Below are positions 1,032 to 63,231 of a stretch of DNA of 64,000 nucleotides, piece by piece. This DNA comes from Hydrolagus colliei. Taxonomy: Eukaryota. The translations under genes were made by a program, and so were the position numbers. Positions within the stretch are counted from its first letter, which is position 1, and each line of letters opens with the position of its first letter. The stretch spans positions 992,001 to 1,056,000 of the forward strand of contig CM068756.1 in NCBI GenBank assembly GCA_035084275.1, read 5' to 3'. The notes under the pieces were generated by a model. The model was not told the DNA's origin. It did not search any database and worked only from the letters and a program-made list of their open reading frames with translations.

Positions 1032-1094
1032 CTCATTACAAGCCTCCAGGTATTTCTGCTTCAGTAGGTTGAGCTCGTTGTGTAAGGTATCTCC
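1032..1094 (-). CDS. PMFBP1-like exon (63 nt, phase 0-0; last visible; absent from ORF track)
   Basis: long pyrimidine tract then ttgacag|GGA...GAG|gtgggt; GDTLHNELNLLKQKYLEACNE. Confidence 0.75.
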
Positions 1095-3822
1095 CTGTCA
1101 AGCAGAACCAGAAAAGGAGAAGAAAAATGAACACAGGACAACATGACACTCTTGGATATTTATTCTTAATCAAATCTTTCACTCATGCTTATTTTCGCAT
1201 TGTGCAACTCCTCATATATGTCTTCTAGGCACAGAGGTTTGTGACCTCCATAGAGCTTCGGTTGAAATTCAGCTTACACCACTGTTTAAAACAACCAAGC
1301 TATTCTAACTGTTTTTTTAGAAAAAAGAAAAACATGAAGTCATTTCGGAATCAATTTGGATTTTTTGTGGTGTTCTTTGTGTTCATTAATATGATGGGTG
1401 CAGTTTGTGAGAATCCAATTTTAATGAATGCTTATTTTTTTTCTTTCTTTAATTTCAGGATAATTGTATATAAACAGTATACAATGTGATAAGCTGAAAC
1501 CAATTAAACCTGCTGCACAGATCAAGCTAGCAGAATTGTTAATTTAATCATTCTACCATTGAGAATAATAGTTTAAGACATCTTTTAAAAAATGCAAGTT
1601 AAAGAACATAAATTTGAATGCATTCCAGTGCCTGTGCTTTGGAGATTTCTCAGTTAACATGTTGAGTTTGTATACATATTATAAAATGTAAATATATTTA
1701 TTCATTTGTACTCTATTTCACAATATTAATGTTATGATTTCTACGTTTGGTTTGATTTAAAAAAAGATTAATTGTTACAAATGTAGCACCATTTGCTTCG
1801 TCAGTGGAAATAAATTGTACAATTTACATGACAAGAAATTTTCATTTTGACAAATAGAATGTGGAAAGCAGCATTCAGCAAACACCAGACTGTTCTCATC
1901 CCTACTTTCATGCTTTTCGGCTTGAGGCCATTTTGCGGAACTGACATCAGCATATTCTTGTACCACATAACTTGTTTTTTTGGAGGGGGAAGATGGCATT
2001 GACCTATGAACTACCAAAACACATCATTCAAGTGGAGCTGCCAAACTGATATTGGATCTTGGAAATTTTAATATAATATTTGTAAAAGTATGTTTCCTGG
2101 AAATTTAATTTTGTCAAATGAAAATTAAACATCGTGGTGCAAGCCCAATTTCTAAATGTTGACGTGCGAAACATAGAAACTCGATTTAAATATCGACTCA
2201 CAGTTGAAAAGAATCATGTTATCAAGGGCAGGAAGTATTTTGTTCAAGCCTTGTAATGAGCTGTCCTGTCACGTACTAGTGAGAAAGAAGCATGTAAGAT
2301 CGGTCTGACATAGTTGTGACTCCCAGATTCCAAAATACTCATTTATGTATTGAGCCTCAGATATAAAACCCACTGGTTTGCCATATAGGTGAACAGGTTT
2401 GTAGGGGTGTGGCTACATGCCCAGAAACAAAAGCGTCAATTTATATTGCAACAATTTTTCCGTTAATAATATTGGACTCTGTTTTCTATTGACTATTTTT
2501 TGGAATGTGGTAGAAACACTGAAAACCTTCATAAACCAGAAGGAGACAGATTTAGGCTTCACTAGCTGAACATTAGCCTCTCTATTCTCCTTCTCGGATT
2601 TGCCGCCGCCATTAACATGCACATTAAATGAAAAATCAATCTGGTTCGTTCTGTTTGCTTCAAAATATATGCGCCCTCTTCAAACGAAGTCAAACAACAT
2701 TTCCGCAGTTATTTACTAACAGACCCTTTCTGAAATGGAGACACTTCAGCCTAAATTTTCCATTACACTTAATTACGCAGCTAAACATTCCAATATCATG
2801 AACAGGCACTAACAGAGAATGTGATAGAAATAAGGTGAAAAAAAAAATCACTCTCCGGTGACACGAATTGTAATACATAGTTGAAGCAATGACTAACACA
2901 CTTTTCAACATCAATTTAAAGCCTGGCTGTGTGGACACGAGGTGGTGTAATGAATATGGCAATTTTAGCCACTGTGGATGGCATGCTATATAACAGCTGT
3001 CATGGCTGACAACATTTTGAATTCACTTTTTGTCTAGCTGATGCACATCTCTCTGGGAGTGTCATAGAAAAGACAGCTAGTAAAGGAATGCGGTGTCTTG
3101 TTTTAATAGAAATGTTCATGCACTGAAATTAGATTGAGCTGTAACCTATATTTCTTACAGTGAAAACCATATTAGGTAATAGACTTTAGGAACAAATCAA
3201 AATGGTTGTTTAAGGAAGGTGGCTTTAGAGCCGAGAGCTGATCTGTGAACTGCTTAATCCAGGTGAACCCTTTTTCAATTAATTTAGAAAGCAGTTACTG
3301 TGGGGAAAATGATTGATTTAATTAAGACTGCTTATCTAAGCAGTCGGCAGCAAAGAATACATACCAAATGAACAAATATCCTCATTTTCTGTAAAATAGT
3401 CTATGTCAGATGCACTGCAATTTAACCCTACAGTTTTCTATACCTATGGGAAAACATGGGAATATGCATCTAACTACTCTCACTCATCTTTTTTTTGCGC
3501 GTGTTCAATTCTATGGTTGAAAGGCACAACAAATTGAATTGGATAAAAACATTCCTACATGTTAAATTTAAACCTAAAAGTGTTCATTATGACTTAAAAC
3601 TTAATTCAGTGGAAACATCTAACTTTATACCATATATAAAACCATGGATTCCTTTGTCCTGCAAAGATAATTGATCACTTGAAACGAGTACATAAAATGC
3701 ATTATCTAAATATCTTTACTTATTTTATTTTGAGGCCTTTTCTAGTTGAAAGCTATCTAAGTCTGATTGCAATGTTAAGTAAATTCCACTTTTTAATCTC
3801 CGCCATTCCTGAACAACAGTAC

Positions 3823-4049
3823 AGTTCATAGAAGCGCTCTGAGACGCCGTCCGGCATGGAGGGTGCTATATAAACCGAAGTTGTTGTTGTCGTTGTTGTT
3901 GTCCGTCTTCGACGGTCCCATCGGTCACTCAAAATCCCCCCCTTTCCCTCCACCCTCCCTGTCCCCAGCTCGAGTCTGAAACAGTGACTGTCCAACTCCT
4001 TGGGATGTCCTCCTGATGTGAAAGGCGCCACACAAGTTGTTGTTGTTGT
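3823..4049 (+). mobile_element. Two tandem L2-type 3' tails with (TTG)n
   Basis: GAAGCGCTCTGAGACG...(GTT)n at 3831-3900; CCTTGGGATGTCCTCCTGATGTGAAAGGCG...(GTT)n ending at 4049. Confidence 0.7.
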
Positions 4050-4222
4050 CCTATAATATGTGCCTAACTGCAATGGTGTTATTGCTGGCTTGACTGAGGT
4101 CGGTTAATTTAGCACAGATTAATTAATGAATTAATTTCAAATAACAGATATATTTTTGGAAACAGGACCTTAGAATTGTAAAAAATCAGAGATTGATGAA
4201 ATGATCTGGAAATGAGTGTTAC

Positions 4223-4390
4223 CTCTTCAACTTTGGAGCGGTATCTTTCCCGAAGTGAAGCTAATTCCACTTTCGTTACCGTCATTTCTTCTTCCTTAAA
4301 CGTCAGCTCCTGCATGGTGTCGTGAAGCTTTCTCTGTGATAACATGAGATGATTGTTGAGTTCCATTATTCGGCCTTCGTACATGTGAGC
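4223..4390 (-). CDS. PMFBP1: PMFBP1-like exon (168 nt, phase 0-0)
   Basis: ttttcag|GCT...GAG|gtaaca; AHMYEGRIMELNNHLMLSQRKLHDTMQELTFKEEEMTVTKVELASLRERYRSKVEE. Confidence 0.88.
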
Positions 4391-6813: not shown

Positions 6814-6981
6814 CTCCTCTTCTGTTTGACAATTTAGCGCTTGCATCTTCTTCAGGTCTTCGTGTAGTCTTCTCACCCTTTCCTCATTGGCTGCATTTTC
6901 TTCAGCCAGCTGAGTATTTCTCTGCTGAGCACGGCCAATATCGTTCCTTAAGTTTGCTAACTCCCTACTCTTCTCACCCAG
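6814..6981 (-). CDS. PMFBP1: PMFBP1-like exon (168 nt, phase 0-0)
   Basis: ttttgcag|CTG...GAG|gtagga; QLAEENAANEERVRRLHEDLKKM resembles recalled [23 protein letters not shown]. Confidence 0.88.
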
Positions 6982-7447: not shown

Positions 7448-7448
7448 T

Positions 7449-7834: not shown

Positions 7835-8002
7835 CTGCTCCATGGTCTCTTTCTGTGTACCCTGGGATGTTGTCAACTCTAGCCTGAGCTCACAGATGGT
7901 TTGATCTGCTGATGCCAGTTCCCGGGTTCCCTTTCGTGTTTGATCCTGTAAAGTGTTTAACTCTGACTGAAGTTTGGCCACTATCTCCTCATAATGAGTC
8001 AA
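7835..8002 (-). CDS. PMFBP1: PMFBP1-like exon (168 nt, phase 0-0)
   Basis: tttacag|TTG...CAG|gtacgt; LTHYEEIVAKLQSELNTLQDQTRKGTRELASADQTICELRLELTTSQGTQKETMEQ. Confidence 0.88.
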
Positions 8003-10432: not shown

Positions 10433-10600
10433 CTCTTTCGCATGGTGTTTGTTCTGTTTGTGAGCTGAGACCAGGCTTGTCTTGTTCAAGTGCATCTCTG
10501 ATTCACAATTTCTATGTTTACTAAGCAGGGTCTGGTATTTTCTCTGCAACTCAGCCAAACTGGGTTCGAGATTTGAAATCCGATCATCCTTGTCCTTCAG
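10433..10600 (-). CDS. PMFBP1: PMFBP1-like exon (168 nt, phase 0-0)
   Basis: ttcctag|CTG...GAG|gtaaaa; LKDKDDRISNLEPSLAELQRKYQTLLSKHRNCESEMHLNKTSLVSAHKQNKHHAKE. Confidence 0.85.
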
Positions 10601-13399: not shown

Positions 13400-13567
13400 C
13401 ATCTGCAAATTAGTTTTCAATTTTTCACTCATGTTTTCGTTTTCTCTTTCCAATTCTCCTGCGCGTTCTCTCACTTTTTGAAGCTGCTTCTCTAATTCTT
13501 GATGCCTTGATTGTTCGATGCTTAATTCTTCTCGAAGCCGCTTTCCCATGTCATCCTTCTGTTGCAC
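13400..13567 (-). CDS. PMFBP1: PMFBP1-like exon (168 nt, phase 0-0)
   Basis: ttttag|GTG...ATG|gtgagt; VQQKDDMGKRLREELSIEQSRHQELEKQLQKVRERAGELERENENMSEKLKTNLQM. Confidence 0.88.
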
Positions 13568-14270: not shown

Positions 14271-14424
14271 CTGCTGTTGCAGTATTTTCATCTGCTCTCT
14301 GGTGTTGTTAACTTCCACTTCCATCTTGTGAACAGATTGCTGTTGCTTTATTCCTGCCTGGACAGCACTTTCATGATTCTGTTTACTCTGTGTACTCTCA
14401 GCTTTGAGCTTTTCAATCAGTCTC
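14271..14424 (-). CDS. PMFBP1: PMFBP1-like exon (154 nt, phase 2-0)
   Basis: atacag|G...CAG|gtaggt; RLIEKLKAESTQSKQNHESAVQAGIKQQQSVHKMEVEVNNTREQMKILQQQ; restores phase 0. Confidence 0.85.
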
Positions 14425-18820: not shown

Positions 18821-21800
18821 ATAACTTGACCAATATTTATCCCAAGGCTCCAGTGTTCCCACATTATCTACTTTAGTCAATAATTTTGTGAAACTCTGCT
18901 GTTTTCCAAGACGTTTGCCCCATAAATATTTAAAATCAGCAAAATGTCATCGTAATTTGTCAATTTAATATTTTGGGAACGATAGATTTCACCTGCTATG
19001 TTAGACTTTTACATATACGGTCACAAATGTAATCAAGCGACACAGGCAGTCTCTTAAAAATACTTAATACACAAATTTTGTTCTTAAGTGGACATTGGCA
19101 CAAGAAAACATAATTTGTGACAGCATCTTTTATAAACACTATACTTCCCTGTTTGAATAACATTAGTTAACGTGAATATATAACCTGTATACGATATATT
19201 AATATTAAATAATATCCTATTATTAAAATGTTATCACTTTCATAGAATGTAATAGCTTTCTTAAATAATTAATAGTAGTTAAGATATTAATAAGTATGAA
19301 TAGTTTGACTATCTCCCTTCTAAACTGCGACAAATTTGTACACGAGATACCAGCTTAATGGAATTCCTGCTGTCAATGTATAACATACTATATATGTGAT
19401 AAGCAGACCAGACCTTGCTTAAATATTCCAGTTAATTGAACCCTATGAAAATCACAAATGATCAAAACAGTGACAAGCCTCTGTGAAGTTGGATCAGCCA
19501 GTTGTACAATAACTGTCTGGACTGTTGTATTCTAAGGAACTTGGTTCAGGAGCCATCAATCATTCAACATTTTATATAAAGTTTTAAATAATAAAACTGT
19601 TTTAAATATTGCTGTTTTAAAGAATAACATTTTCTATTTTACATAATTTTGGCCTAATTAATTAATCTGAATTTGCTGATTTAGATTTAGAATGATCGTC
19701 AATTTAATAAAACAAAATTGCGGTAGAAAAAAGAAAAGGAATTACTGTGATTATTAACCTGACTTAAACTGAAGCTATAATTCAAGATGAGATTTGAAAT
19801 TTACTTTTGTTCAGACGGATAAATTAAACGTAGCATTTCTAAGAGAAAAGACAAAACATTTTATGGTGGTGTTTCCTACGCTTGTCCATTGCAGGCAATA
19901 GGGTTTGTGCAGGATTCATTTCCAAAGTGATGTTCTGTGTGATCTAGAAATTGATTAGGAACAGATATGTAACGCACATGCTATGTGAACAGTTTAAACC
20001 ACCAACAGGGGGTGTCAGCTACTGCTGTTTCACTTCAGTAATGAGGTTCTCCTCCAACCACCTCAGCTCCCAAAGGAGGTCTTACAGCAGACAGTTACTG
20101 AACTTGCCCGGCTCATAAATCTCCGTTGATGGATCAAAAAATTTAATCGAAAGGTTACGTAGAAGCAGAAAAATTCCCCGTTTACTCCATTTCCACTCCT
20201 CCTCCTGGGGGCATAATAATAAAATAGTGCCTTTGTACAGCCGGGCGGGAAAGATATGGCCCACAGGGAAAAATCGTTAGTTGGGCAAAACATCCAGTAG
20301 GACTGAGATATATGGACAGAGTGTGAAGCACTTCTCTTGTAAGATATTGATTTTTGAACAATATTGTCTGTTTTTGAAGGAATCAAATAGTCCTCATATG
20401 TGTCTTAACATTGATCATGTGTGGTTACTTGTGTAGTTAAACTCATCTAAATAAATTGAACTTGGAAAAACAAAGTGAATGAAATTAAAACAGGAACTCA
20501 AAACTGCTAAAGCTTTTTTTTTTAAAAAAAATTCTCAAAGGTCTGTTAAGGATTGAGCTCTCCCCCCATGGCTAGCTTTAATAAGCTCCAAAATCCCACC
20601 CCTTGTTAGCAGGGCTAGATAGTAAGAAATAAAAAGGTCCATCAATTCATTGCCTGAGGCAATGCTAGATTTGCAATACAGCAAAGGACATTTATGATTG
20701 TAGGCAAAAGGTTAAGAGCTGCTGTATCTCCGTAATGTATAACTGATAAATGTGGTTTGGTAACAAAGACACTGCAGGTCGAAATCACCAAAGCTTTGAG
20801 ATGTAAAGACATTAATATTGAGAACGGTTACAACAATTCAACAATTGGTAAAAGCAACTTATTTTGCTTTTCAGTTGTTTTGACAAAGACAGGTCAAAGA
20901 AACAAAAGGGAGAACCTTTAGTGAAAAGTGGCAAGGGGGGCAAAGGAATGTGTTTTGTGTACATTCAAGGCAGACAAGTAAGTGAAGCACTACTAGTGTG
21001 CATTCATATTCTAACAGCTTCACTTATTTCGAAATAAGCAAATACTGTACTAAACAAATAAGCTAAGGGAGAACAGATGTCCAAGCTGTATTTTAATCTT
21101 TCATCTCAAGCATTCTGTAGCTGCTAATATTATTTTTAAAGTATACGTTTGCATTGAAATTTACAGTTTCCACAGAAGATTAACAGAAATCTCCTTGGAA
21201 ACTGTAAGGTCTTATTTTATTACTTTGTTTAACTATGGAATGGTCATTATCATCTGTTTAAAGTTGCTGAAATAAACAAGCAAGATGAAAACAAAAAGCA
21301 TATTTATTTATTATGAGTTTCATAAAGTTCAATAGATTTTCAGATCCTTTCTGACAAATAAATGCACATTTATTAAGTTCAGTGAGCTATTTTGCATTGA
21401 TATAAAAATTTGGGGGACAATTACTGCATCATGGCACCTACAATGACTAATAAAAACACAATTAGCCTGGTTTCCAGTTTAACAAAATATTATACTAAGA
21501 ATAATCTTATTCTTTTATTAGACAAAAGCATTTTCTAAATGCACCATTCATGCAATCACATTTTAGTTTATTTACTCTAATGCATCGAAAGCAAATGGTA
21601 TGCTACTCTTTTGCAAAATTTACTCCTAGGCTAGATTATCTGAGTTTCAATAATCGACTAAGACGCCATATCACTCCAGGCAAGAAATTTGTTGTTTTGC
21701 AATTTCAAACAAGAATATGGTTATGAATTTATATTGTAATACATCAGATTCAATATACTTTCCTAACAAGATTATCTATTCTCATTAATCTATCATCTTT

Positions 21801-25241: not shown

Positions 25242-25488
25242 CCGATTGTCTGCACTGCTTGTTGGCCTCTTGCAGCTCCTGTTTCAGCCGCTGTATCTCA
25301 GCCTTGAGGGAAGTATTTTCATTCTCTTTTTGTTGCTTTTCCTTCTTATGTCTCTGAAGCTCCATCTCCAGGCATTTTACCATAGTGCTCTGCTTCTCGA
25401 TTTCTGCTGCCTTCCCTTTGATTCTATCACGGGCCTGGAGCAGGTCTGCCTCGGACTTCCTCAAGAGGTCATCTCTCTTCTGTATTGC
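25242..25488 (-). CDS. PMFBP1: PMFBP1-like exon (247 nt, phase 0-1)
   Basis: ctccaaag|GCA...TCGG|gtaagg; EIEKQSTMVKCLEM...LKAEIQRLKQELQEA resembles recalled ELEKQQCMATELEM...LQAEVQKLKNSLEEA. Confidence 0.88.
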
Positions 25489-27062: not shown

Positions 27063-27220
27063 CTCTTCTTGCTGCATACAAGACTTGCGACAGTTGCGGA
27101 GGTCATTTTCCAATCGCTTAATGTGTTGTTCCATTTCAGCTGACTCTATTTTGTGTTTTTGCCCCTCAGAGGCCACTTCAAGCTGCAGGTTTTGGACAAC
27201 CTTCTCCAACCTTGCCACAT
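27063..27220 (-). CDS. PMFBP1: PMFBP1-like exon (158 nt, phase 1-0; absent from ORF track)
   Basis: tttaaag|AT...GAG|gtgagc; (D)VARLEKVVQNLQLEVASEGQKHKIESAEMEQHIKRLENDLRNCRKSCMQQEE; phase complements preceding exon. Confidence 0.85.
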
Positions 27221-28327: not shown

Positions 28328-28454
28328 CTTTAATGCTGTTATTTTTTTGTTCTGTAATGGCAGATAATTCAGCGTTCATCTTGTGCACCATCCCCTGGTA
28401 ATTGTCAATTTGCTGAACATATTCAGAAACCTCACCATTGACTTGTACAATATC
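28328..28454 (-). CDS. PMFBP1: PMFBP1-like exon (127 nt, phase 0-1; absent from ORF track)
   Basis: cactag|GAT...AAAG|gtaata; DIVQVNGEVSEYVQQIDNYQGMVHKMNAELSAITEQKNNSIK resembles recalled [21 protein letters not shown]. Confidence 0.85.
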
Positions 28455-33342: not shown

Positions 33343-33465
33343 CTTTTTAAGACTTTCAATGTGACTAATCTGAGATTCATACTCTTTGTCAGAGTGGCTG
33401 TGAATGGCTTTGTAGGAAGCAAAATCTGTTTGGAGTTTTGTAATAGTGTCTTCCTGTTCGGTAGC
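33343..33465 (-). CDS. PMFBP1: PMFBP1-like exon (123 nt, phase 0-0; absent from ORF track)
   Basis: ttacag|GCT...AAG|gtgggt; ATEQEDTITKLQTDFASYKAIHSHSDKEYESQISHIESLKK; KLQTDFASY resembles recalled PMFBP1 KLQADFASC. Confidence 0.85.
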
Positions 33466-42908: not shown

Positions 42909-42911
42909 TAT

Positions 42912-43375: not shown

Positions 43376-43606
43376 CTGATTGTTCGCTTCTGTTAATTCG
43401 CCCTCCAGGATCTGCTTGGCACATTCCAGCTCCGTGATCTTCTTCATGCAAGACTGGTATTTCTGCTTAAATACATCCAGAGTGATTTCAACAGATTTAC
43501 ATTTCTGATTGGCTTCGACTAAACAGTCGTCGGAGTCAAACTGCTGCCGTCTGAGCTGAGACATTTCCGCTTCCTGTTTGTGCAGAACCTCCTCACACCG
43601 ACACAC
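43376..43606 (-). CDS. PMFBP1: PMFBP1-like exon (231 nt, phase 0-0)
   Basis: ttgtcag|GTG...CAG|gtcagt; LDVFKQKYQSCMKKITELECAKQILEGEL resembles recalled PMFBP1 [29 protein letters not shown]. Confidence 0.85.
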
Positions 43607-44577: not shown

Positions 44578-44820
44578 TTCATCTACCACCTCTTGATGAA
44601 GCCGATGTCCGCGCTGCATGTCAGCATTTAGCACGTCCACTGTGCATTTGTACTGCTGCATTTTGGCCATTCTCTCCTGCAATTCCTTGGTACAAGAATC
44701 CAGCTCCTTCTGAAGTTGAGCCTTTTCACGGCTGAAGCGGTCCATTTCCGATTCATGTGCCCGTTTGCTGGCTTCCAGTTCTTTCTGCAGCTGATCCATG
44801 GATTTCTCCTGATTCTGACT
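44578..44820 (-). CDS. PMFBP1-like exon (243 nt, phase 0-0)
   Basis: tccttag|AGT...GAA|gtaagg; SQNQEKSMDQLQKELEASKRAHESEMDRFSREKAQLQKELDSC...HQEVVDE; nearby in-frame AGs make the acceptor slightly uncertain. Confidence 0.8.
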
Positions 44821-47800
44821 CTAAGGATGCACAAGCACAATTTGGAAGGTCTCACATTACCTTGTGTTTCCAGCAGCTTACTCTACGTATACATACCATC
44901 TGTACCAGTGAAGGGGAGCTTTCAAATAAATATGCAGTCATTTGGGACGTGTTCTTGGTGTAACGGTGGAAAATTTCCTTTCAAAACAGTTCCATCAGTT
45001 TTGAATAAATAAAGTGTTGTAGATTTGGAAAGGACCAAATATGGAATGAACGTAATGGAGAAATCTTAGCTTGTAGCTCACATGTAAAAGGGGAGGGGAA
45101 GAGAAGAAACATAACTCAGTTGTTCAGTCAAGTAAATACAAGTAAATTCTGTAAATGAAAGCCACCAGCAGCACTGATGTAATTGTCCAAAGCATAAAAA
45201 TTAAGTCCTTATTCTGCACAATTCACACAGATAAGACAAACATGCCACTGCTCTCCATGAATGTTAAAACCAGAAGCAACAGTCTGTACTGATTTGGTGT
45301 GTATGTTTGTTGCCTAGGAGGACTTTGTAAAAACAATGCCCTTGTCAATCTGTGTTTGTGTATGTGTGTGTCTGTGAATACTCAATGTGTTTCTGTTATA
45401 AAATGAGAGCATATAGGTTGTCGCTTTCGTATAAATATGTGAGAATCTTACAAAGTGAGGAACAGTCAGCATGATTTCACTTTCGTTTTAGTTTATACTG
45501 CTTTGAATAGGTCAATTTTACAAGGTTTGAGGCTATAGAATTCAACATTCATAAGTATGATTTTTGTGCATCTATGATCAGTACTCTTCATATTTATGTT
45601 GATGAACACATTAAATGGTGGAGTAATGTGAAATTCATAAATAAAACACTTGGATCTTTTGGGGAGCAGTGTCTACTTAAAATGTATTTTAACCAGTAAA
45701 GAATATATTGTTCCAGCTTAACATCAGCTTGTTAAATATTAAATGTTGTCAGTGTTTAAAACAAATTCTAGTCATGAAGAATAACAGGACATGTGTTTTG
45801 TTTTATTCCTCCAGGAACAGCCATCTTTAGAGTGAGATAACTATCGCCCTGTCTATCACTGCTGCTGATTGAGTAGGTTATACCACAAAAATGTAGATGC
45901 ATCAGCTAGTATTAAATCTATCTACGTCTTTAAATCCCAACAACCTGTTAGCCTTTTGATGTAAATGTTATTGTAATGTTATTTAATACATGGCAAATCT
46001 TTCAGATAGCATTTAATTTGTGGAATTCACAAAAAATTCAATCTTAGTACATATTTGCTCTCTGTGTATAAAAGGAGGGGTATTGAAAATTAATTAGGTA
46101 AATGACATGTGTCCATTCTCAGATCCAAGAGAGGACAGGTACTATTACCAATATTTAATGTGTTGCTCGGGTCACAGTGAAGGATGACAATATTGTGGCA
46201 TAAAGTCAACTTGTGCAATGCCCCATTTTTCGTTGTCACTCTTCATATTAGATAGTGATCAAGTGGCATCTGTTAGTAACCCCCTTCAGCACTGTTTGAA
46301 AGTTTGCATTTTTAAATAATTCCATGTAGGCAACCAAAGCATTCTTGCAAATGACTGTCAATCATATATACTAAGCAAAATAGCACGGCCTTCAGGACAC
46401 TGGTAATTGAAGCTTCCATTCATTGACTATGTATTGATGAGGAAAGCATTTAAAAAATAACTTAATACAGTATAATTAAATTTTGTGCATTTCGGTGGAT
46501 TATTCATCATTAAGTGCCTTGAGAGTAAATCCAATTATAGTGCTATTCTCCACAACCCAAACAAATAACACAGGAGTAGGGAAAATAGAATAATCTCTGT
46601 GGAGAAAGAGGAAATTGTGCTACCCCACTCACAAATCACACCTCATTCATTATATATGGAGGAGGAGCATGAGAGCTCACACCCACAATTCACCTCAGTG
46701 TATATTCTCTCTTTTCTAAACAGCAAACTGTCTGATAGAATGTTGAAGGTAAATTTCCAGTAATGGTTGTGCCATTAAAGTGCGACACTGAGTGAAATTG
46801 TAACAGACAGAAGGAGTCACCCTGAGCTACTCGTGTGTGTCTCCGCGCAAAGTAGTGCTGCCAGAGGAGTGAGAGAAAGTTCCCTAGGTCACTCTTTGTT
46901 CTATCAAAGACGACTATGATCAGGAAGAGAACAGTAGTTACCTCCTTCAATATCACCCTCCTGCAACTAAGATATAGATGACTAGGTATACAAAATCCTT
47001 GATAGAGTCAAGATCCCTTTCCCTTCACAAGATCTGCTGTGTTTGAAATCCCCCCCCATTAATTATATACACAAATTTTAAGCCAGTTGAGATCTAATAA
47101 AACATGAATAACAATTAAAAATAAAATTTGCACGAAGGCATTAAAATGTATGCCCTATGTGTTATTCACAGATTATATTAGATCAGCATAAAAAAAGTAG
47201 TGCATGGATCAGGAGGTTTTAGGCTTGATTCTTGGGCTGGTCTGAGTGAGTGGCAACCCGTGATTAATATGTAACCCAAAGTGACTCAGTCCTGCAAAAG
47301 AGGGGAGAGTTAAAGTAGGAAAAAGTGGGCCATGGGTTTACAGACCATGCTTAGGAATCTTAAAATAGATTAGTTTAAATTAAAGTTGACTCTTTTACTC
47401 TGATTAGCAAAGATGTCTTCAAAACGGTGATTATCTTAATTCTAAATATAATGATTCTACTTGTATTTAGTTTTATTTCACTGAGCTTCTGCGTTATTTA
47501 TCAAGCGCATAATTCAATACATTTGAAGCATTCATCTTTCATATGATTCTGTTAGTAGTTCACAGCAAATGGACATTGCATTACAACATTGCAAATGAAA
47601 AATCTGGGAGGATAAATGGCTAAAGTAATTTGATATGTAGCGTACAGGCTTATTCTGCTATTTAGAACTGGTAAGTGTCTTCAGAGATAAAGATGCCCTA
47701 CTTTTTCAATACGGTTTAGCTGCTCATTATTCTTCATTAATGAAAGCATACCCTGTTATACTGTGCGCTTTAAAAATACTCCGAGTTACATCATACGAGA

Positions 47801-49594
47801 ATGTTCCATGCTACAATTCAACATGCAAACAAAGTGAGAATAAAGAAAAAGCCTAAAGCTATGTAACCGGTGAAATGTTTCCCTTCCATATTCCCTACTT
47901 GTTGCAGATTAATCAAGCGTTTGAAGAGTCAGAAGAATTTATTTACATTGACATTTTAAAGTTGAATGCCACAATATTTTTAGTTGACGTTCTGTATCAG
48001 CTACGTTTCATCATCTGTTTTTGAGTAACTGATCTGTCTCCCATGAGGATACACAGCTTTTTTTTTGCTTTTATTTTCATTCGTTCTATATGTCTTGCCA
48101 CAATTGGTTTATCCAACCTTTGTTCATCCAAAATCTCTGCCAATTAATTAAATTCCATTTTGTACCTACTACTTATTTTATTACCTGTACTTTTGTTTTT
48201 TGTCCACTTGAGCTACATATTTGGGAAAACGTGGGTTATTTGACAAAATAGAATTACACTTATATATTAGCACATATAATATGCTTACAATAGAATGGAT
48301 GGTACTGTAATGATGCACAATTAAGGCATATGTAACAGTGAAATTGCATTTCCCTTCATCTTTTTGTTTTTCATGTTATAATATGCATTGAATATTACCA
48401 TTAATATTTTAAAAAGCAATACAATGAGTCTTCAAAAGATGAAAAGAAGGTGTCTGAGTGAGAATACATTTATTTAAAGTGGAATGTTGATTTGGAGACG
48501 ATTAAGAGAGCATGAAAACTATGTTAACAATTCTAAAAAACACAAGGATAAAAATAAATGCCAGCACATCTGCGAAGAAAAAGAAAATTAAAGCGTTAGT
48601 CATCAAAAATCCGGCTAAGCCGAGCTTTAGCATCGTTGTCAAACCCCAATTTCTCAAACTAACTAATCTGAAAACACCCTTTGGCAATTTAAAATGAGCC
48701 AGAAATATGAACATGCTCCTATGATAGTCTGCTTTTTTGCCCCTTGATTAATTTTGAATGGAGCTCAAACACTATTTGCATATAATTTTTGTGTGTCAGA
48801 CCTTGACATGGAACCCTTTCATCAACCAAGCTTGTCAAACAGGAAATTCTGAATCTCATTTAGTTTCTAATATCATTTTCATGATGCAGAGTGGAAAAAA
48901 ATGTCTAAGATAACCCGCTTCATCAATCAAAATTAAGAAACACTTTTCTAGGAGAGTGCTGGTCAATCAGAATTCCAATATCCCTGGATGATTAAACATA
49001 CCTGTTTTCTAAGCTAGAGGAAAGAAAGCAAATGTCCCAGTAATTTGCCAGCAATGAATACATTACCGCTTCACCTTTAGTCACTGACCTCAACCTTTTT
49101 TACTCTTTTTTTTAAAATTGTCGGCATACTGCTTATTATTTTGTACAGGGCTATACGCTTGATTACCTGCAAAATGCGTTGCCACAATCTCTTTCCAAAT
49201 GAAGCAGAAAGAAATCATTAAAAATTAATGTCATGCCGGTTGCTTCAATATGAGAAAAAAGTTCATGTAAATCATTTTGAAATATCACGTAATTTTTCCC
49301 ACATAAGACTGACAGAAATGAATACACTTTATTCCATTTTAATTGTTATAATTTTGAAAGATAAAAGGTCAGATGAAGAAGATAGAAAGCGAGTGACAGT
49401 TTCCAGTTGTAATCGTGCCAATTAACCCCCTTGGTACCAAATTTTCAACGTTCTCTTTAATACGCAATTATGTTTTCCTACTTCCACACAAATACAGACA
49501 AATTTGAGTACAAATTTGTGAAGCATTTTGAGATGTGCTTTATATAAACATCTCTGTAAATATTTATAATTTAAATATTGCAGGTGAATACTAA

Positions 49595-49780
49595 CAATAA
49601 TAATAAATAATAATCCTTGCATTTGATGTAGTGCCTTATGACATGTTCAAAACTTCCCAAAGTACTTAATGGGACTTTCCTCTAAATTGTACTGTCTGTA
49701 TCTGTAGGTGAATGTGGTAGCCAATTCAATGTCCAACAAACAGCCATGAAGTGAACGGCCATTTTGTTCTGGGGGATTTA
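49595..49780 (-). mobile_element. Degenerate SINE 3' part
   Basis: (AAT)n-CCTTGCATTTGATG start and remnant GCCAATT core. Confidence 0.6.
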
Positions 49781-50774
49781 TGACCAAAACACCAAGAGAA
49801 ACTGAAGGCGTGAAGTCAAAAGTTTCCATTCCTACAATATTACCAGCCATTCGGAATTCTCTAACAATACATAGTGACTTCAATTAATATTATCTTTAAA
49901 AATGTGGACATGATATATTAAAATGGCAAGTACATGTACTAATTGAAAGAATAAGCAGGTTCACTCTTGTGGTAAATAAGTCCTTTATAACAGCAATAAA
50001 ATGAATCTCTAGTCTAAACTCAACAACCCACGGCTTGTATTTAGTCTCTTGCTGTATTGCAACATCTTTGCTTTTGTCAACTCTTGATCCACAATTATGC
50101 TTCTTCAATAACATTTGCTAATACTTTCATATACACAAGCACTTTGACAGGGGAAACACTGATGCATAACAATGTCATTAAAGGAGCCTGATTGGTTGCC
50201 CTGAAGGTAGATAAGAATTACATATACATATTGCTGAACTTTTTTTCCTTATTATCTTTTGACACAACATGTAATGACCTCCCCCAGCCCCTCAGCCTAT
50301 ACATAGATTAGAAAGATTAGCATTTATGTTAACCTCCCTTAACATTTTTGTTTGATAATGTTTAATGAATAGGTTCAAATAGGTTAAGGTTTTTTAAAAC
50401 TCATGGATTGCGATAAAATACTTGTTTCTCATTGTGAGGCGAGGAGATAAAGAAACCTCTTTGATTTGAAATCCATTGGTACTCAGCCAATCCTCAAGCA
50501 AAAGATGTGTTTTGGCAAGGAGGAATGAAATAGATTTTCAGTCATTCACAAGACAAGTCAAGTCAGCGAGAAAAAGCAAGGAGGAAATTGTTTAAAGAAA
50601 AGTTACAATAAAAAAGACAAAGTGGGAATAGGGAAGAAAACAAACAGATTGGAAAACAAGGGGGTGGCAGGGAGAATGCATATAAAGTTTTACATTTTAG
50701 AATTTAAATGAAGACAGGAATTTTTAAAATCCTACCATTACTCTTTGCTTTAATCAAAAACTAGATATTATTAA

Positions 50775-50860
50775 TAATAGTAATAATCCTTCCATTTGAT
50801 ATAGCACTTTATCACGTCTTTGAGATTGTAAAGTGAATTGACTGAGTATTTTGTGGGAAA
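50775..50860 (-). mobile_element. SINE tail fragment
   Basis: AATAATCCTTCCATTTGATATAGCAC...GTAAAGTGAATTGACTG. Confidence 0.65.
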
Positions 50861-52559
50861 AATATATTCAACTCACATAATGTAGTAAAGAAGAAGAATA
50901 TAAAAGGTATGAGATATATGATGGGCAAGACTCAAGGCGGTGGCTGAACATGTGTTATATTTAACATCGTTAATAGGTAGGATCAAACTTGATAGCAACT
51001 CGGCTATAATCAGAAACCTTACTTTTTCTGGAAGACCTTCAATTTTACAATGAGTAACTTTTCTAGTCTGATCAAAGAATAATTACAAACAAGTCACATA
51101 GGCATTTTTTGGGAAACATGCCCTTGGACTATAATGAGCTTCCCAAACGCAGTACACTTATGAATAAATGAAAGAAATGAATGAATAATTGAATAAACAA
51201 ATAAATAAATAAAGCCACAAATGTACAATGCACAAGAAAAAGGCGATACTATTATATGCTGCTGCTTTCAGAACCTGTCATTTAACTAAAAAAATTCCTA
51301 CATAAAAATTTTCAGCCAAATCCACAGGGTGGGGAAGATGTCATTTCATATCAATTATTTGTACTACTTATAAAATTTAAAGTTACTATCTGACAGAGTT
51401 TGAGAGATGCAATGCTGCTTTGACAACACTAGCTTCTAAGGTAATTTAAAGACAATATTTCTCAATGATTTAAGATGTGTAGAATAGTCCACTGAAACAG
51501 CAAAAAGAGCCATCACAAGTTAGGAGAAAACAGGTTCTGTCTTTCTTGCAGTAGAGCTCCAGATATTAGCTTCACAAAGCAGAGATCACGGTCTTAAATT
51601 CCAAATTAAATAGGGATTGTGGCGAGCCATTAATCTGAAGGCTGGAAAGAAAAACCCTTCGTGAATGTGAAGGGTAGAGTTCGAAGAGCAGTGTTACAGG
51701 AATGCAATCAGTGGGTATCTTAGGAGTTGTTGAGGTCTCTGATCTACATCAACTTGAAAGAGTGGATTCTGGAAACTATACACTTGCATTTTGTATTTCT
51801 CTTGAAGTTTGAGGAAAACTCACATAAATAAACCTTGCCAATAATCAAATAAGACAAGAAATTCCATAGCAAATGGGCTCAGGTACCACAAATGAGATAA
51901 AAATGTACAAGTTGGGGGAACTGGTATAAAAACAAGTTGAAGTTTGAGACACACGAGATCGCTCTTGTTCCTTTATGTCACCTCAGAGATAAAGAGCTCA
52001 CAAAAAAGTGTAAGGATACAGCCATAGACACCAACTTCTTGTTTGGGAAAGGTTGAATAATAATAATAATCCTTACATTGTCATCCTTCACTGTGACCTG
52101 AGCAATGACAAGAATGATACTTATCTTATGAAGTGGGCAGCTGTGCCATCTTAAAACTAGATAATATCCGTCCCCTCACACAAATGCCAAAGCCCTATTT
52201 TTTTTTCCAGTTCTGAATCTCATAACAAACCTTTCCTGTGTTTTGTGGGGGAAAAAATGTCAACAAATTGTGCATTATTATTTGAAGTACTTCTGTCAAC
52301 ATCTACAGCCCAATACTTGGCATAAATGATATACATACCATGGTATACCTCAATTAGAAGGAAGGATAGCTTCTTATTCTAGTTCATAAATGTAAGTTTT
52401 GTTTGTTCATAATAGTTACTCCAGAAACGAGCGTTACCTCACCTCATGGACACATATGCTATCATAACTATCCGCAGTATGTCAAGGTCCCACACTATCT
52501 ACCTTGATGTATTTCAGGAAATCAGAATACATTCAGAATAATGCCTAGTTGTATGACAG

Positions 52560-53080
52560 TGAGACATATAGTCTTCTGGAATACTTTAAAGTTTGCCTCA
52601 GTGGATGGATCACGTCACACGTAGTAGGCAGAAAAGGAAGGATGATTTAGGTTAGAGAGCTCAATTGCAGACATGCCCTACTCTTACAAGGGCATTGATA
52701 GTGAAGAAATACAGATTTAAAAGGTTAGCAAGTGAGAAGACAGAATGGTTATTATTTTGATCAAAAATCAACTGTAATAAGCATGTGGAGAAGACAAGGA
52801 AGTCAAAGCAAGATTTATTAGGGTGATGGACAGTTCTACCCTAATTTTGGCCCTGAGGGACAGCTCTGGCCAACTAATCACGTCCTGTGAGAGAATCACT
52901 ACCGAGTTGAAAGCATTCTGCTCACATCTATACGCCTCAGAGTATGGATCAATGGAAAGTGATCTTGACGCCTTCTTTACTGACATTACGCTTAGCAGAA
53001 TGCCAGACCTGGACAGAGAACATCTTGACAGAACCATTGAACTGAAAGGAATACAGACATGTCCTGCTTGGGAACTTGCC
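52560..53080 (+). mobile_element. L1-clade LINE ORF2 relic (endonuclease-RT linker region)
   Basis: WNTLKVCLSGWI (WealKaylRG-like) and ILALRDSSGQLITSCERITTELKAFCSHLYASE...FFTDITLSRM..LDRTI match the fish-type L1 pattern I..D..G......I...F..FY..LY.SE. Confidence 0.7.
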
Positions 53081-53458
53081 TGGAGGAGCTTCCCAGCACT
53101 TTATAAATTTTATAAATTGCACCAAGTTGGTTTGCCCCACTATTTCAGGAAGTGTATGAAGGAGGTAGACAAGATCAATGACATCTGTGTTAATCATTCT
53201 CAAAACGAAATAGGGGTTCTCATCCACGGGCAATGTGGAATTTTATGGACAAATCTTTGCGATTAGTTGAGTGCCAGCACAAATGTCAACTAACAAATTG
53301 AGTAACTTCATCTTCAGTTCACTTGGCGCATAAGTGTTCTTACCAACAACAAACTATCTTTGAATCATATATACTTGGCAAGCAACTAAGGCACCAGGTA
53401 CTAATTCAGTTTGTTAGTCTTCATAATTTTGGAGTAATAATGGAGCAGATTTAATGAC

Positions 53459-53660
53459 AATAATCCTTGCATTTGATATCGCGTGTTTCACATCTTCTAG
53501 ACGTCTCAAAGTGCTTCACATAATATACTGTAAAATGAATTGACTATATATTTGTGGGCGAAGCATGGCAGCCAATTTGCGCACAGACGTGTCTCACAAA
53601 CAGTTGTGGAATATAATGACCAATTTTTTTTAGGGATTATTATTCGGCGTGTGGTGTAAG
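53459..53660 (-). mobile_element. 5'-truncated SINE
   Basis: Reverse complement of tail and core (GGCAGCCAATTTGCGCACAG). Confidence 0.85.
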
Positions 53661-53745
53661 ATATTGTATTGATAATTAATGACAAAAAACAAGAGGAACA
53701 TATCTGTGAGTCACATTGAGGTAAATGTACATAATGCAGGGTGAA

Positions 53746-53799
53746 GTCTAGAAGACGTGAAAAGCGCTATATCAAATGCAAGGATTATTATTTATTATT
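53746..53799 (+). mobile_element. SINE tail fragment
   Basis: GTCTAGAAGACGTGAAAAGCGCTATATCAAATGCAAGGATTATT. Confidence 0.8.
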
Positions 53800-54045
53800 A
53801 ATGGCATGTTGACAGTCTTTTGCTCGAATATAGAATATCTGCAGTGTCTGCTATGAGAAAATGGCTTCCAAATGTTTCAAAATTCTGCACAATGTTAAAT
53901 TTCAAGTCAATGGTTTTAACATTAAAAACATAAGAGTTTTCAGGCATCTTAAAACCCAATTAAGTCACTGGTCCTTAAGAAAAGGAAAGGGAAACCTGGC
54001 ATTATGATAAAAGCAGAAATCCATCAGTAAGCCTACAGGACTTAC

Positions 54046-54129
54046 CTCCTCCCATGCACTCTTGACGTTTTCCTGAGCAGTCTTTAATTCAGATTTCAGT
54101 TTCAAAATGGTTTGATCCCTTGTGTTAAC
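54046..54129 (-). CDS. PMFBP1-like exon (84 nt, phase 0-0)
   Basis: tggcag|GTT...GAG|gtaagt; VNTRDQTILKLKSELKTAQENVKSAWEE (one 28-aa unit). Confidence 0.85.
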
Positions 54130-54777: not shown

Positions 54778-54945
54778 CTCACTCTGTGCTGTTATGTGAT
54801 TTTCAGTAAGGACACTGAGTTCAGTGTCCAGCTTCTGCTTCTCCAAAGTAACGTTTGAGAGAGTCACTGCTTGTTGGGCTGACTCTTCATTAACATCTGC
54901 TAACTTGCTCTTCAGTTCTGCCACAACATCCTCACTGTGTAACAA
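54778..54945 (-). CDS. PMFBP1-like exon (168 nt, phase 0-0)
   Basis: gtgcag|TTG...GAG|gtaggt; LLHSEDVVAELKSKLADVNEESAQQAVTLSNVTLEKQKLDTELSVLTENHITAQSE. Confidence 0.85.
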
Positions 54946-57500
54946 CTGCACACACAAGCATTGAAAAAATGTAAAGGGCATGCTTTTTAAAATGTTTGTG
55001 TTGGTCGTGAAGGGCCCATGAAATGGATTTAGATATTCTCATTGCAACCGCACAAGTCCGCTGCATAAATGTGCTCAGAATTTAACACAAACAGGCAATT
55101 GTTTTCAGGCGGATGAAGAGGATAACGTTACGAAAATCAGGTGGTGAAACACTGATACAGCAAAAGATACTTTCTGCGCATTAAGGCAAACAGATTGAAC
55201 ATGATTCTCCATGTGGAATATTCTTTGCCTGACTTAAGAATAATGGGAAAAGTGGACAAATCTCCAAAATGCCTCCCTTGTGCATTGAAAAGCATGGAAA
55301 TCTACAATTATGAAAATAGCTGATTTCTACATTTACACTTATACATGTACCACATACACACCACAACATATACTCACTTCAGAGTAACAGCCGGTGTACT
55401 GATACTGCAAGTCTTCCATGTGCTTCTGTAAAGTACAGTTTTTTTCTTCCCTTCTCGCAATCTGCAGATTTTTCAAAACATGAAGATTACATCAAATACA
55501 AATGCGAAAATATGTTTGCCGACAAAAACATAGAATCACTACATTTTACCAAAAAAATACACTTTCAGCACATTTCACTAATTTTTTATTTTATATGAAG
55601 TAGACAAAATGCTAAGGACAAGCAGTTATTTTAATGGAACTATATCTGGAGGAAGAACATATATCAAGAGAAGTGCTCACAGACTCCAACATTCTCCACC
55701 CCCCCCACTCAATGAATATGCATCCAGCAGCTTTGGTTATAATGGGGCCTAATTAGAGCTGAAATATCTTCAAAAAATCCACTGAATAGCCACAATTCCT
55801 CAGAGATTTCACATTTTTCTTCTTCTCTGGTACTTGTTTAATATATCCTTCTGCTGTTAGAATCACATGATACTGAAAAACGTGCCTTATCCAATTTTTG
55901 GGTATCTAATTCAATTTAATTATCTCCTAGATCCTAGGAATTCAATATTTTCACCTTTTAAGCTGTACAATCACCTGATTTTTTTTAATCAAGGGATTAT
56001 TCCCTTTCATATTTCAGATTTGTCACAAGAATTTAATTACAACCCTCACAAATTAGAATATCTCTTCATTGTTACTGTATGTAGCTTTCTGTTGTTAAAA
56101 GGCATCTCCAACTTTGTCAGTAACCATTTTAATATTGTGGATTGCAGAATCCTGGAGCAATTTGCTCACACAAAGCAAAAGTTTAATTAGAGGTGTAACA
56201 AGCTATAAAAAGTTTATTTAACTAACAAGTGAACACTTGTATTGAACCTACCAACTGACTAGACTAGATCATACTCAAGTGATCCAATCATGATTATACA
56301 TCACATAATCATGTAATGTTTATATCACTACATTTGTCAAACAAATGTACATAAGATACCAATTACACTCCCATGGGTATAATACAAAATATCTAATCCT
56401 TAGCCATTTTTAATCAGGAAATAATTTATTTTGTTTGGCTTATCTATTGGATTTCCATCACATAGTTTTCTTGTGTTTAAAATACAATATGTTGCACCAC
56501 AGGTCACAAAGCAAAAAAAAAAGGAAAAAAACGTAGTGGTCAAAAATATCTTTTTATATGTGTGTTACTTTGTCGACTTTGGTATGTGTATGCTTTCAAG
56601 TAAAAATAGAGTTTAAAGATGATGGCGCTAATAATTTTCAATCATTTGAATAACATTTCACGCAACTCAGGAACTGACTAGACAGCTATACCATGATTAC
56701 ACTTCCAGGAGTGAAACCCAATTTAGACTTTCTGCTCCACATCATTTTCAATCAGGACTGAAAAAAGGAAATCCCAATTTTAGAGATTGCTGTATGTTCA
56801 GAAACAGAAAGGAGATGTTTCCTTTTTAATGATATTAAATAGTTGATCATGCAATCTAAATATCTTTAAAAGTAAAGTTCCTTGAAAGTTTCTGGGAAAT
56901 GTTATGTCTTACGGGGGAAGAGTGCTAATCTCACATTCCATATTTTTACCACAGTGTGTGTGAATCACGCAGGTCTTAAAATTACCTCTTCCAGGAGGTT
57001 TCAAAATCAGGGCTGACTTCAGCACAACTCAAACTGTTAATATTGCAAACTTGCCAATGAAACCGGCATCAAACATGAGATATGTGTTGCACAAGACAAA
57101 CCTAAGAATGCAGGTGATTTATATAAAACAAAATGTCCAGAGCAGAGCAATAAAGAGTCATAGTACAGTGGAAGAAGCTCACTTTAAGGTCTTCCCACTA
57201 ACGTGGTCAACTAATTTACATGGTAAGGTTTCTTTTCCGCAGTTTTTTCATTAAACATTGTATTATATTGTACAGTATTACACACTCATGACTGAGGTTG
57301 ATCTCGACAAGCCAAAGAACATTAAATGATTAAAATTTCTGAATCAATTACATATACAGACAAGCAACATTCATCTCTGCAAAATAGTCAATGATTTCAC
57401 CAAAAACTTGACGCACTTGTCTTTTTTTTTATCATGCTGGATGGTCAACATTTTAAACGATTTTAAAAAAAACATTTCTGGTCAAAAGCTAGTTATGTAC

Positions 57501-57680
57501 CTCACTGTTTGCATTTCTCCCTGTTTCATTCAGTTTGTTGGTCATCTGATGCAGGGTTTCTTGACATTCCCTGAACTGGTCCATAAGCTGCTGAAAGTCT
57601 TCTGCTTTATTCTGCAGTTTGCATCTTAAAGTGTCAGATTCAAATTCAGTGGCATTCAGGTGTTCCTCCATTTCCAGCAT
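57501..57680 (-). CDS. PMFBP1-like exon (180 nt, phase 0-0)
   Basis: ttttgcag|ATG...GAG|gtacat; MLEMEEHLNATEFESDTLRCKLQNKAEDFQQLMDQFRECQETLHQMTNKLNETGRNANSE. Confidence 0.85.
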
Positions 57681-57736
57681 CTGCAAAACACAATTTTTTT
57701 TTTGCTAATCTCCTGAATGGCATTCAAAGCTTTAGA

Positions 57737-57785
57737 ACAACAACAACGTTACATTGATAAGAGTGCCTTTCACGTCGGGAGGACT
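57737..57785 (-). mobile_element. L2 tail fragment
   Basis: (CAA)n...GTGCCTTTCACGTCGGGAGGAC; similar short tails at about 9664-9723(+), 40733-40800(+), 60660-60730(+) and 62250-62310(-). Confidence 0.65.
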
Positions 57786-62021: not shown

Positions 62022-62575
62022 GAGTGGAACCTCGATTATCCACGACTGAATTATCAGTTTTCCTGATCATTCACCAAGCTCCTGTCACCTACCTAACTTC
62101 GCTTGCTTCACTAATGTAAATATAACCTTGCGTCTGAAAAGAACAGCAATTTGAATTCCTACCCAGAAAATCAATCATTTTAGATGTGAAAATCAAAAGC
62201 ATGTTTTGTTTGGACAGTTTTATGTTCAGTCAGCAAATAGTAATGAAAATAAACAACAATAAATTACATTTTTATACCACCTTTCACGTCAGAAGGATGT
62301 CCTAAAGAGGGCTTACTAGATGCTGAACTAGTCTGAAGTTTATACCTGTGTTCTCTAGGTACCTTTTTATATTTCTGTAATAAAGTGACAGCCGAAGGTA
62401 CAGTTCCATGATTTTTCTGAAGTATATTAAAGTTGTTAATTATTCAAACAATGTGCAGTTAAATGAAGAAAGATTCCATCCTCAATTATCAGTCAATTTC
62501 AATCATCCACCAGGCTCCCCACCGCTACCACCCCCACCCCACCCACCGCCTCATCATTATGGTGGATAATCAAAT
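62022..62575. mobile_element. Possible decayed Tigger-like MITE
   Basis: TA-GAGTGGAACCTCGATTATCCAC start and GTGGATAATC near 62562; right end eroded. Confidence 0.35.
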
Positions 62576-63063
62576 CCAAAGAAGTATAAAATAATTGTGT
62601 GGAATGAAAGGTGGTCAAGTGGGAACACAAAAGCTCACCCAAATATTTGATTAACAAAATCACTAAATTGTATTACTTATGTTTTGAATAGGATAGTAAT
62701 CAGTCAGCATTGAAGCATTTCACCAACGTCAAATTAATTTTGTGAAATTCAATTATTGTTCACTGCTGCTTCAACACAGCTTTTCATAGTTGAATGCAAT
62801 GCTTTTAGAACACAACGTGGGTCAATAGGATCAACAGATATTTGTTAGGTACGGATATCAACGGATGGGGAGATTAGGGAGGTAAATTTAGTTGAACAGA
62901 ATCAAGGGATTGAATGGTCTAACTGTTTTGTATGTTGAAATGCAGCAAAGCTGTGAGCAGAGTTAGGTCTGATTAACAGAATATATATATCTACATGTAC
63001 TATCCTTATCTGTTATTTGAATGTGTTGCTGTATAAAGCACAAACAAAGCAAATTGGCATTAC

Positions 63064-63231
63064 CCGTGTTTGGGATTCTTTGAGTTTGTTGTGTAGGAGC
63101 TCAGTCTCAGTTGTCAGTTGTTGGATTGTTTCTTCGTTCACCTCAGTGCTCCTCTTAGTTGAATCCTGAACAATCTGAATAGATGAAAGCTCTTCATTCA
63201 ACTGGCTTATTGTATCTTCACATCGTTTCAC
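63064..63231 (-). CDS. PMFBP1-like coiled-coil gene, first exon visible in window (168 nt, phase 0-0)
   Basis: ttctag|GTG...CGG|gtaatg; VKRCEDTISQLNEELSSIQIVQDSTKRSTEVNEETIQQLTTETELLHNKLKESQTR; heptad pattern. Confidence 0.85.

Follow-up and report, generated by a model that had tools for sequence, protein, structure and literature searches.

Heptad-sized exons and a degenerate 28-residue repeat in the coiled-coil rod of holocephalan PMFBP1

The 64,000-nucleotide (nt) stretch of Hydrolagus colliei DNA analysed here (assembly GCA_035084275.1, contig CM068756.1, positions 992,001 to 1,056,000; hereafter the window) carries on its minus strand part of the gene PMFBP1. We conclude that the ~1,430-residue PMFBP1 rod is a degenerate 28-residue repeat that probably arose by ancient tandem duplication, is predicted to run as a parallel coil and likely serves as a tether between sperm head and tail. 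Ancient exon duplication is favored because introns fall at one of 28 positions, with other suitable positions left empty, and because a paralogue of the gene carries a recent exon copy. Growth of the rod by duplication of an 84/168-nt exon had been proposed in an earlier note on this DNA, made from the letters alone; besides these two observations, whole-module differences between species support growth from an 84-nt unit.

Identity and structure of the gene

The gene, which the earlier note had left without a name, is holocephalan PMFBP1. A search with a Callorhinchus milii protein, 84% identical in one exon, gives hits named pmfbp1 in shark, ray, turtle and amphibians, and the exons map colinearly onto pmfbp1 homologues. 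In a tree of the core built from 43 of 44 aligned proteins, a paralogue clade is split off at 100/100 and this gene sides with shark pmfbp1 and amniote PMFBP1, the deeper branching on the PMFBP1 side not being firmly resolved. Downstream, on the opposite strand and 54 kb to the left of the window, lies an exon of DHX38/PRP16 (E 8e-34); in a human gene table, DHX38 and PMFBP1 are successive entries at 16q22.2 (PMC7899829). Pfam searches with single exons and with full homologues returned generic coiled-coil matches only, and the N-terminal 110 residues retrieved only unrelated coiled-coil clusters from the ESM Atlas (106-131 shared features).

The gene model was obtained by a blind exon scan followed by refinement with shark and ray proteins, its junctions being placed from splice signals and homology. 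When spliced, its 20 in-window exons, all bounded by AG/GT, give a single open frame on the minus strand. The earlier note had described 19 exons; the multi-exon gene stands, and an 84-nt exon at 55461-55378 had evidently been overlooked. All ten motifs that it quoted lie on the minus strand: the six given as exon starts directly follow AG acceptors, and the four said to recur at residue 29 are exactly 84 nt into the same exons. The gene overruns both window edges, to ~22 kb past the 144-kb mark on the right and to ~20 kb outside the window on the left. The exons, with one intron, are listed in the order of transcription (aa, amino acids).

63064..63231, minus strand: PMFBP1 exon of the homology-guided model, 168 nt, phase 0-0, two 28-residue units; paralogue counterpart of equal length
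57501..57680, minus strand: exon, 180 nt (56+4 aa, internal stutter), phase 0-0; missing in 3/3 ray PMFBP1 proteins compared
55378..55461, minus strand: exon, 84 nt, phase 0-0, one unit
54778..54945, minus strand: exon, 168 nt, phase 0-0
54046..54129, minus strand: exon, 84 nt, phase 0-0; approximate start point of the rodent protein
44821..54045, minus strand: intron; at the equivalent place a 168-nt exon occurs in sharks, rays and the paralogue, and no remnant of it was found here
44578..44820, minus strand: exon, 243 nt (77+4 aa, internal stutter), phase 0-0
43376..43606, minus strand: exon, 231 nt, phase 0-0; 84% identity to Callorhinchus milii P0001
40265..40495, minus strand: exon, 231 nt (28+28+21), phase 0-0
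33343..33465, minus strand: exon, 123 nt, phase 0-0; the invariant core begins with this exon, which carries a conserved His/Ser helix-break motif
28328..28454, minus strand: core exon, 127 nt, phase 0-1
27063..27220, minus strand: core exon, 158 nt, phase 1-0; fused to the preceding exon in the paralogue
25242..25488, minus strand: core exon, 247 nt, phase 0-1; together with the two exons that follow, it encodes 1 + 7 x 28 residues
17709..17898, minus strand: core exon, 190 nt, phase 1-2
14271..14424, minus strand: core exon, 154 nt, phase 2-0
13400..13567, minus strand: 168-nt exon 1 of 5, phase 0-0; lost in Narcine
10433..10600, minus strand: 168-nt exon 2 of 5; lost from the paralogue of several eel relatives
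7835..8002, minus strand: 168-nt exon 3 of 5; start of the part that matches the mouse CENTLEIN-binding region (aa 750-1023), via a rodent-protein alignment
6814..6981, minus strand: 168-nt exon 4 of 5
4223..4390, minus strand: 168-nt exon 5 of 5
1032..1094, minus strand: exon, 63 nt, phase 0-0, encoding a single 21-residue unit; not present in shark or ray PMFBP1 or in the paralogue here; bony vertebrates have it as 21 aa

The His/Ser-rich motif of the 41-aa exon at 33343-33465 is conserved from sharks to mammals, the rodent version containing prolines, and is likely to be a hinge or a binding site. Upstream of the window (L004, ~7549) an 84-nt exon ends, by homology, in a GC donor. Homology ruled out a 105-nt form of that exon as well as a 204-nt start for exon 57680, and the last exon of the Callorhinchus model, near 20126, has no good acceptor and is unsupported in sharks.

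Two exons of sharks and rays, one of 56 aa after 54046 and one of 49 aa upstream of the window, were not found by an ungapped scan and a relaxed tblastn. Contigs of run X1, which may be the source sample, cover the interval after 54046 with short gaps at repeats only, and since they tile it an assembly hole at the missing 56-aa exon is unlikely. The same intron contains very high-depth dispersed repeats at ~49600, 50830, 52060 and 53500-53800.

Exon lengths come in multiples of the heptad

The phase 0-0 exons within the window measure 168 (seven exons), 231 (two), 84 (two), 63, 180, 243 and 123 nt, so that 12 of 15 are multiples of 21 nt (binomial p 2e-8 at an expectation of 1/7). The excess noticed in the earlier note is therefore real, its count of 11 of 14 being corrected by the addition of the overlooked 84-nt exon, and the run of five consecutive 168-nt exons recurs in the spliced model. 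Beyond the window the pattern continues, with 19/26 phase 0-0 exons in the modelled part of the gene being multiples of 21 nt. Because exons related by duplication are not independent, a count by distinct lengths is fairer; it gives 5 of 11 (p 0.013).

Control coiled-coil genes of the same genome are near 1 in 7, with 6 of their 37 phase 0-0 exons being multiples of 21 nt: 1/11 in non-muscle myosin, 2/9 in sarcomeric myosin, 0/4 in CCDC158, 0/3 in MAD1 and 3/10 in SYCP1. These five gene families were modelled with the same blind scanner, their boundaries are partly unverified, and the counts exclude two myosin exons, one mis-extended and the other terminal, as well as a CCDC158 candidate that lacked support. 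In SYCP1 (C29, ~2,384,700-2,387,100) three nearby 63-nt phase 0-0 candidate exons form a small heptad-quantised stretch of their own.

A 28-residue repeat in register with the splice sites

Hydrophobicity along the protein has a period of 3.51 with a power of 83 (95% shuffle maximum 10.9), as for a protein that is mostly coiled coil. When heptad positions were assigned blind to the exons, 23 of the 25 phase-0 rod exons began at position a and two at g, confirming the common register of exon starts described in the earlier note; the corresponding figures are 16/20 in the paralogue and 5/14 in myosin. Jumps of register are located within one core exon and the exons of 53, 60, 71 and 81 residues, the stutter of exons of length 7n+4 being mostly internal. 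Since starts keep to a and jumps stay inside exons, the rule is "start at a" rather than "length 7n".

Against heptad-preserving shuffles, self-similarity of the rod is raised at lags of 28 (z 4.4), 56 (z 2.8) and 84 (z 5.0) and is at or below zero at lags 7, 14, 21, 35 and 42. The lag-28 z is 5.8 in the paralogue and 4.9 in myosin; in the CCDC158 and SYCP1 blocks, which are short and give low power, it is -1.4 and -0.7. The 28-residue repeat proposed earlier thus stands, with the amendment that the units mix 28 and 21 residues: 49-aa exons parse mostly as 21+28 and 77-aa exons as 28+28+21. An unbroken series of seventeen 28-mers extends from exon 25488 through exon 4390; its first seven cross three exons with off-register introns.

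The sequences at exon starts resemble one another (mutual likeness 0.60, first residue omitted) far more than windows 7 or 14 residues further in (0.11 and -0.22), and the seven 56-aa exons score 19.8 together, compared with 4.2 +/- 3.1 after heptad shuffling. When 57 units of the two genes are compared, conservation is seen at position 1 (L/V/I), position 4 (polar; heptad position d), position 5 (E/D, 43/57), position 8 (I/L/V), position 11 (L, 42/57), and positions 14 and 28 (both E). Codons for E, Q and K, which would favor new splice sites, are found in 15 exons at position 14 (10/15), position 42 (11/15) and position 56 (12/15); no introns occur in these 15 exons at positions 14, 21 and 42, though E/Q/K are equally suitable there.

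Charge pattern and a predicted parallel dimer

The charge pattern of the repeat sits at positions e, g and d; myosin shows the reverse. Surface positions b, c and f lack a charge term at 28, 14 or 9.3 residues (p 0.21-0.35); at period 28 the ratio is 1.6 (p 0.21), compared with 6.8-12.6 in three myosin blocks, and the packing into myosin- or paramyosin-like filaments suggested in the earlier note is not supported. Charge power at period 28 is 3.0 for the whole rod, 1.8 for the paralogue and 29.8 for myosin, with a 95% shuffle level of ~4.3; at period 9.3 it reaches 8.5 in the PMFBP1 rod (99% shuffle level 6.9) and a non-significant 5.0 in the paralogue. Of the Fourier peaks foreseen earlier, that of the heptad is present (3.51), and neither hydrophobicity nor charge has a global peak at 28. 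By the standard rules for coiled coils, charges at e, g and d are read as lying within the dimer, and the pattern fits salt bridges within the dimer rather than filament packing.

A two-copy model of ray residues 1427-1706, which comprise five 56-aa modules, scored 0.34 (best control 0.00), a pass that may stem from resemblance to solved coiled coils. The mark that it passes is reached in microbes by 21/30 solved homodimers and 0/23 single chains, and in eukaryotes by 17/29 and 0/30. At least 95% of contacts are common to the runs, the predicted local distance difference test score (pLDDT) is at least 77, and the model is a parallel coil with in-register contacts (i with i) that continue across exon joins. 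On this modelling, the rod is predicted to be a parallel two-stranded coiled coil; at 0.1485 nm per residue it would measure ~210 nm. The conserved E at g and e around the polar d, together with I/V at a and L at d, would lock the two chains in register.

A paralogue with the same exon layout

An unnamed paralogue of PMFBP1 lies on the plus strand at G000:C2:77.73-77.94 Mb. Its exon lengths are identical to those of PMFBP1 in 21 of the 21 exons compared, at 37% protein identity; it keeps the 168-nt exon missing from PMFBP1 here and is without the 63-nt exon. The paralogue clade includes Mobula, Chiloscyllium, eels, herrings and amphibians, and contains no amniote protein of the tree. About 500 nt after one working 168-nt exon, at G000:C2:77,888,300-77,888,470, is a degenerate tandem copy of that exon together with its upstream intron, carrying an altered acceptor, a frameshift and a stop.

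Two further features of this locus stand apart. The fused core exon (G000:C2:77,852,119-77,852,403) has an apparent donor 21 nt upstream of the old one (264 vs 285 nt), and the intervening 21 nt now contain stops, so that one heptad has seemingly been dropped. An early exon (L048:25) has a one-base frameshift in the assembly; the run X1 contig has an extra base there, and the frameshift is an assembly error or a second allele.

Modules across lineages

Lineages differ mainly by whole modules. The rodent protein has ~1,020 aa and fish proteins up to 1,980 aa, with a range of 905-1,982 aa among aligned database models, some of them incomplete. Module length is exact (the 21 paralogue exons; 415 ungapped residues to sea urchin) and total length varies ~twofold. 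In all 44 aligned proteins, every row contains the core blocks of 41, 42, 53, 82 and 64 residues, and arm modules are missing as wholes, with alignment noise in distant rows. Compared with Hypanus the rod differs by -49, +7, +60, -56, +3 and +21 residues; indels in Narcine are -133, -81 and -56. Rodent residue 1 aligns to ray residue 785, and invertebrate models end about there.

With a profile of the N-terminal head, proteins of Aplysia (P0180), Capitella (P0211), sea urchin (P0218) and Biomphalaria (P0230) were among the best 120 of 157 matches (E 2e-17 to 2e-26). The two long ones among them also match a rod profile, at E 3e-32 and 4e-28 (Z=1e6), where a myosin control gives E 0.27. The sea-urchin protein aligns with the paralogue without a gap over those 415 residues, 131 of them identical (score 622, compared with at most 197 in 30 heptad shuffles), and the snail protein requires one 7-residue insertion. 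Profiles of the core and C-terminal part gave no clear match in the invertebrate proteins, whose models end just before that part; the models may be truncated, or the C-terminal half may be confined to vertebrates. Because these models stop where the vertebrate core would begin, homology is shown for the N-terminal half only. In annotation, the N-terminal head appears as a separate short model of 133-691 aa in several turtles, and many fish homologues bear wrong names (trichohyalin-, golgin-, paramyosin- or myosin-like).

Annotated isoforms of the homologues, counted within one annotation set, contain 24 internal indels of at least 20 aa, of which 11 are multiples of 7, four are stutter modules and nine are neither; isoform pairs of Arapaima, Paramormyrops and a dasyurid and complex or frameshifted turtle models were left out. 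These isoforms show that module skipping is predicted in many species, which does not imply regulation.

Discussion

The history that we favor begins with an 84-nt, phase-0, intron-flanked unit that would have been duplicated many times before the bilaterian split, later loss of many introns then leaving exons of ~1-4 units. The outcome would be a long dimeric tether whose core is invariant and whose two arms tolerate the loss of modules. Because phase-0 starts are nearly all at a and stutters are mostly internal, modules can be lost without a break of register, and arm lengths therefore vary between lineages; the earlier proposal that skipping or loss of such exons would preserve both frame and register agrees with the whole-module differences between species. 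Piecemeal loss of the phase-1 and phase-2 core exons would be impossible, and the core is retained in all homologues.

Several observations weigh against this history. The repeat continues through the 247-, 190- and 154-nt exons (1 + 7 x 28 aa), where the introns do not keep the register, and because it crosses them much intron loss and some intron gain are needed; this continuation was not seen in the earlier note. Unit-unit identity, at only 6-15 of 56, is too low for ordering the duplications. Two phase-0 exons begin at g rather than a. Finally, the N-terminal half, absent in mammals, has no described function in the literature consulted.

A very unlikely alternative is late intron gain, in which the rod grew within exons and introns were inserted later at AG|G-like unit ends, the register being a by-product. 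Unit ends are usually E/Q/K, many unit boundaries are intron-free and the core introns are off register, all as late gain would have it, but positions 14, 21 and 42 are equally suitable and intron-free in the 15 exons, and the tandem exon copy in the paralogue came together with its intron. We regard as more improbable still a myosin- or paramyosin-like filament in which the repeat drives staggered lateral packing into neck fibers. Lag-28 similarity does equal that of myosin (z 4.4 and 5.8 vs 4.9), seventeen 28-mers follow one another from exon 25488 to exon 4390, and the charge power of 8.5 at period 9.3 exceeds the 99% shuffle level of 6.9. However, period-28 charge power (3.0 and 1.8 vs 29.8 in myosin) is low, with none on the b, c, f surface, the charges at e, g and d are placed opposite to those of myosin, the 21-residue units and stutters disrupt the phase in the N-terminal half, the 44 genomic matches to Myosin_tail_1 (PF01576) include none on this contig, and this family is also missing from the Pfam matches of the single exons and full homologues.

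Two readings concern what the modules are for. If regulated skipping of cassette exons set rod length, and thus the spacing between nucleus and centriole, by stage or tissue, the rod would be a tunable ruler. Isoform indels do fit modules (the 11 multiples of 7, plus four, of 60, 81, 116 and 137, that are whole stutter modules), sea-urchin isoforms include a 28-aa cassette, and distant relatives agree in module length to the residue. Yet the isoforms are predicted models, nine of the 24 indels fit neither class, and such skips are expected as splicing noise from a gene of these exons; moreover, total length differs ~twofold between lineages, whereas known spacers conserve length (PMC5082667), and the C-terminal modules overlap the mouse CENTLEIN-binding region and so are not a pure spacer. 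We consider such a ruler unlikely. Also doubtful is a broader proposal, in which a modular 28-residue rod common to all bilaterians, with the sea-urchin, snail and annelid homologues and the second paralogue of sharks, fish and amphibians among its members, survives in PMFBP1 as a C-terminal remnant. It would tether the sperm centriole to the nucleus and set neck geometry through changes of length in steps of one exon that preserve the register, made by exon loss between species and by splicing within a species.

The function proposed here, that of a degenerate repeat rod tethering sperm head to tail, is carried over from the mammalian orthologue, and by that analogy a role at the sperm neck is likely in this fish. 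Mammalian PMFBP1 is located at the head-tail coupling apparatus and binds CENTLEIN via residues 750-1023 (PMC12539209, PMC8363609); by alignment the corresponding region, a putative binding site, is present in the fish protein. One paper doubts CENTLEIN as part of the mature envelope lattice (PMC13012075). Mammalian PMFBP1 (STAP; PMC12539209, PMC8363609) shares with the fish protein a colinear core and C-terminal region, the DHX38 neighbor and coiled coil throughout, and a human splice mutation report places the start of exon 15 at c.2089, that is, in phase 0 (PMC11639112). The fish protein differs in being ~800 residues longer at its N-terminus, with a conserved head not found in rodent, in its clear 28-residue repeat, which has faded in rodent (z 1.1), and in the existence of a second paralogue in non-amniote vertebrates.

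Comparison with other coiled coils sets the PMFBP1 rod apart in several respects. Like PMFBP1, myosin II and paramyosin rods have a 28-residue repeat, a long two-stranded coil and occasional skips or stutters; unlike them, PMFBP1 lacks an alternating period-28 surface charge and has no match to the family, and myosin exons are heptad multiples in only 3/20 cases and start at scattered heptad positions. The gene, and heptad-sized exons as such, are already known, the latter from the cytoplasmic tails of chicken BG proteins (PMC4046983), which share a coiled coil encoded in such exons; the reference list of that paper cites size polymorphism via a heptad-repeat region. BG genes, however, have one heptad per exon and encode Ig-V transmembrane proteins, whereas PMFBP1 exons span 3-11 heptads of a 28-mer (the shortest being 63 nt), their layout is common to jawed vertebrates, and a Pfam scan found no Ig family in full-length homologues. 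The spacers of giantin, ROCK2 and Ndc80 (PMC5082667) likewise combine divergent sequence with residue-exact local length; unlike theirs, the total length of PMFBP1 varies across vertebrates in exon-sized steps. Silkworm BmPMFBP1 (PMC8970482) shares the name and is a testis coiled-coil protein required for fertility, but its authors consider it probably not homologous to PMFBP1, which they cite as conserved within tetrapods; the invertebrate homologues of the present analysis belong to sea urchin, molluscs and an annelid. In the literature searched, outside which most subscription papers and supplements fell, neither the repeat of PMFBP1 nor its exon modules or paralogue were described.

According to a 2025 review (PMC12539209), 70% of human acephalic-sperm cases are explained by variants in PMFBP1 and SUN5, and PMFBP1 has a poorly described molecular function and unidentified counterparts in other species. 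That mammals are without the N-terminal half, the part that led to the invertebrate proteins, suggests why mammalian queries return scarce matches. PMFBP1 now has an architecture, in which the core is invariant, the two arms consist of modules that can be dropped, and a parallel dimer is predicted. Candidate homologues are also named in tractable animals (the Xenopus paralogue, the Danionella protein and the sea-urchin protein). The exon map directly gives clean, in-register deletion alleles, with which the question of whether the rod acts as a spacer becomes testable.

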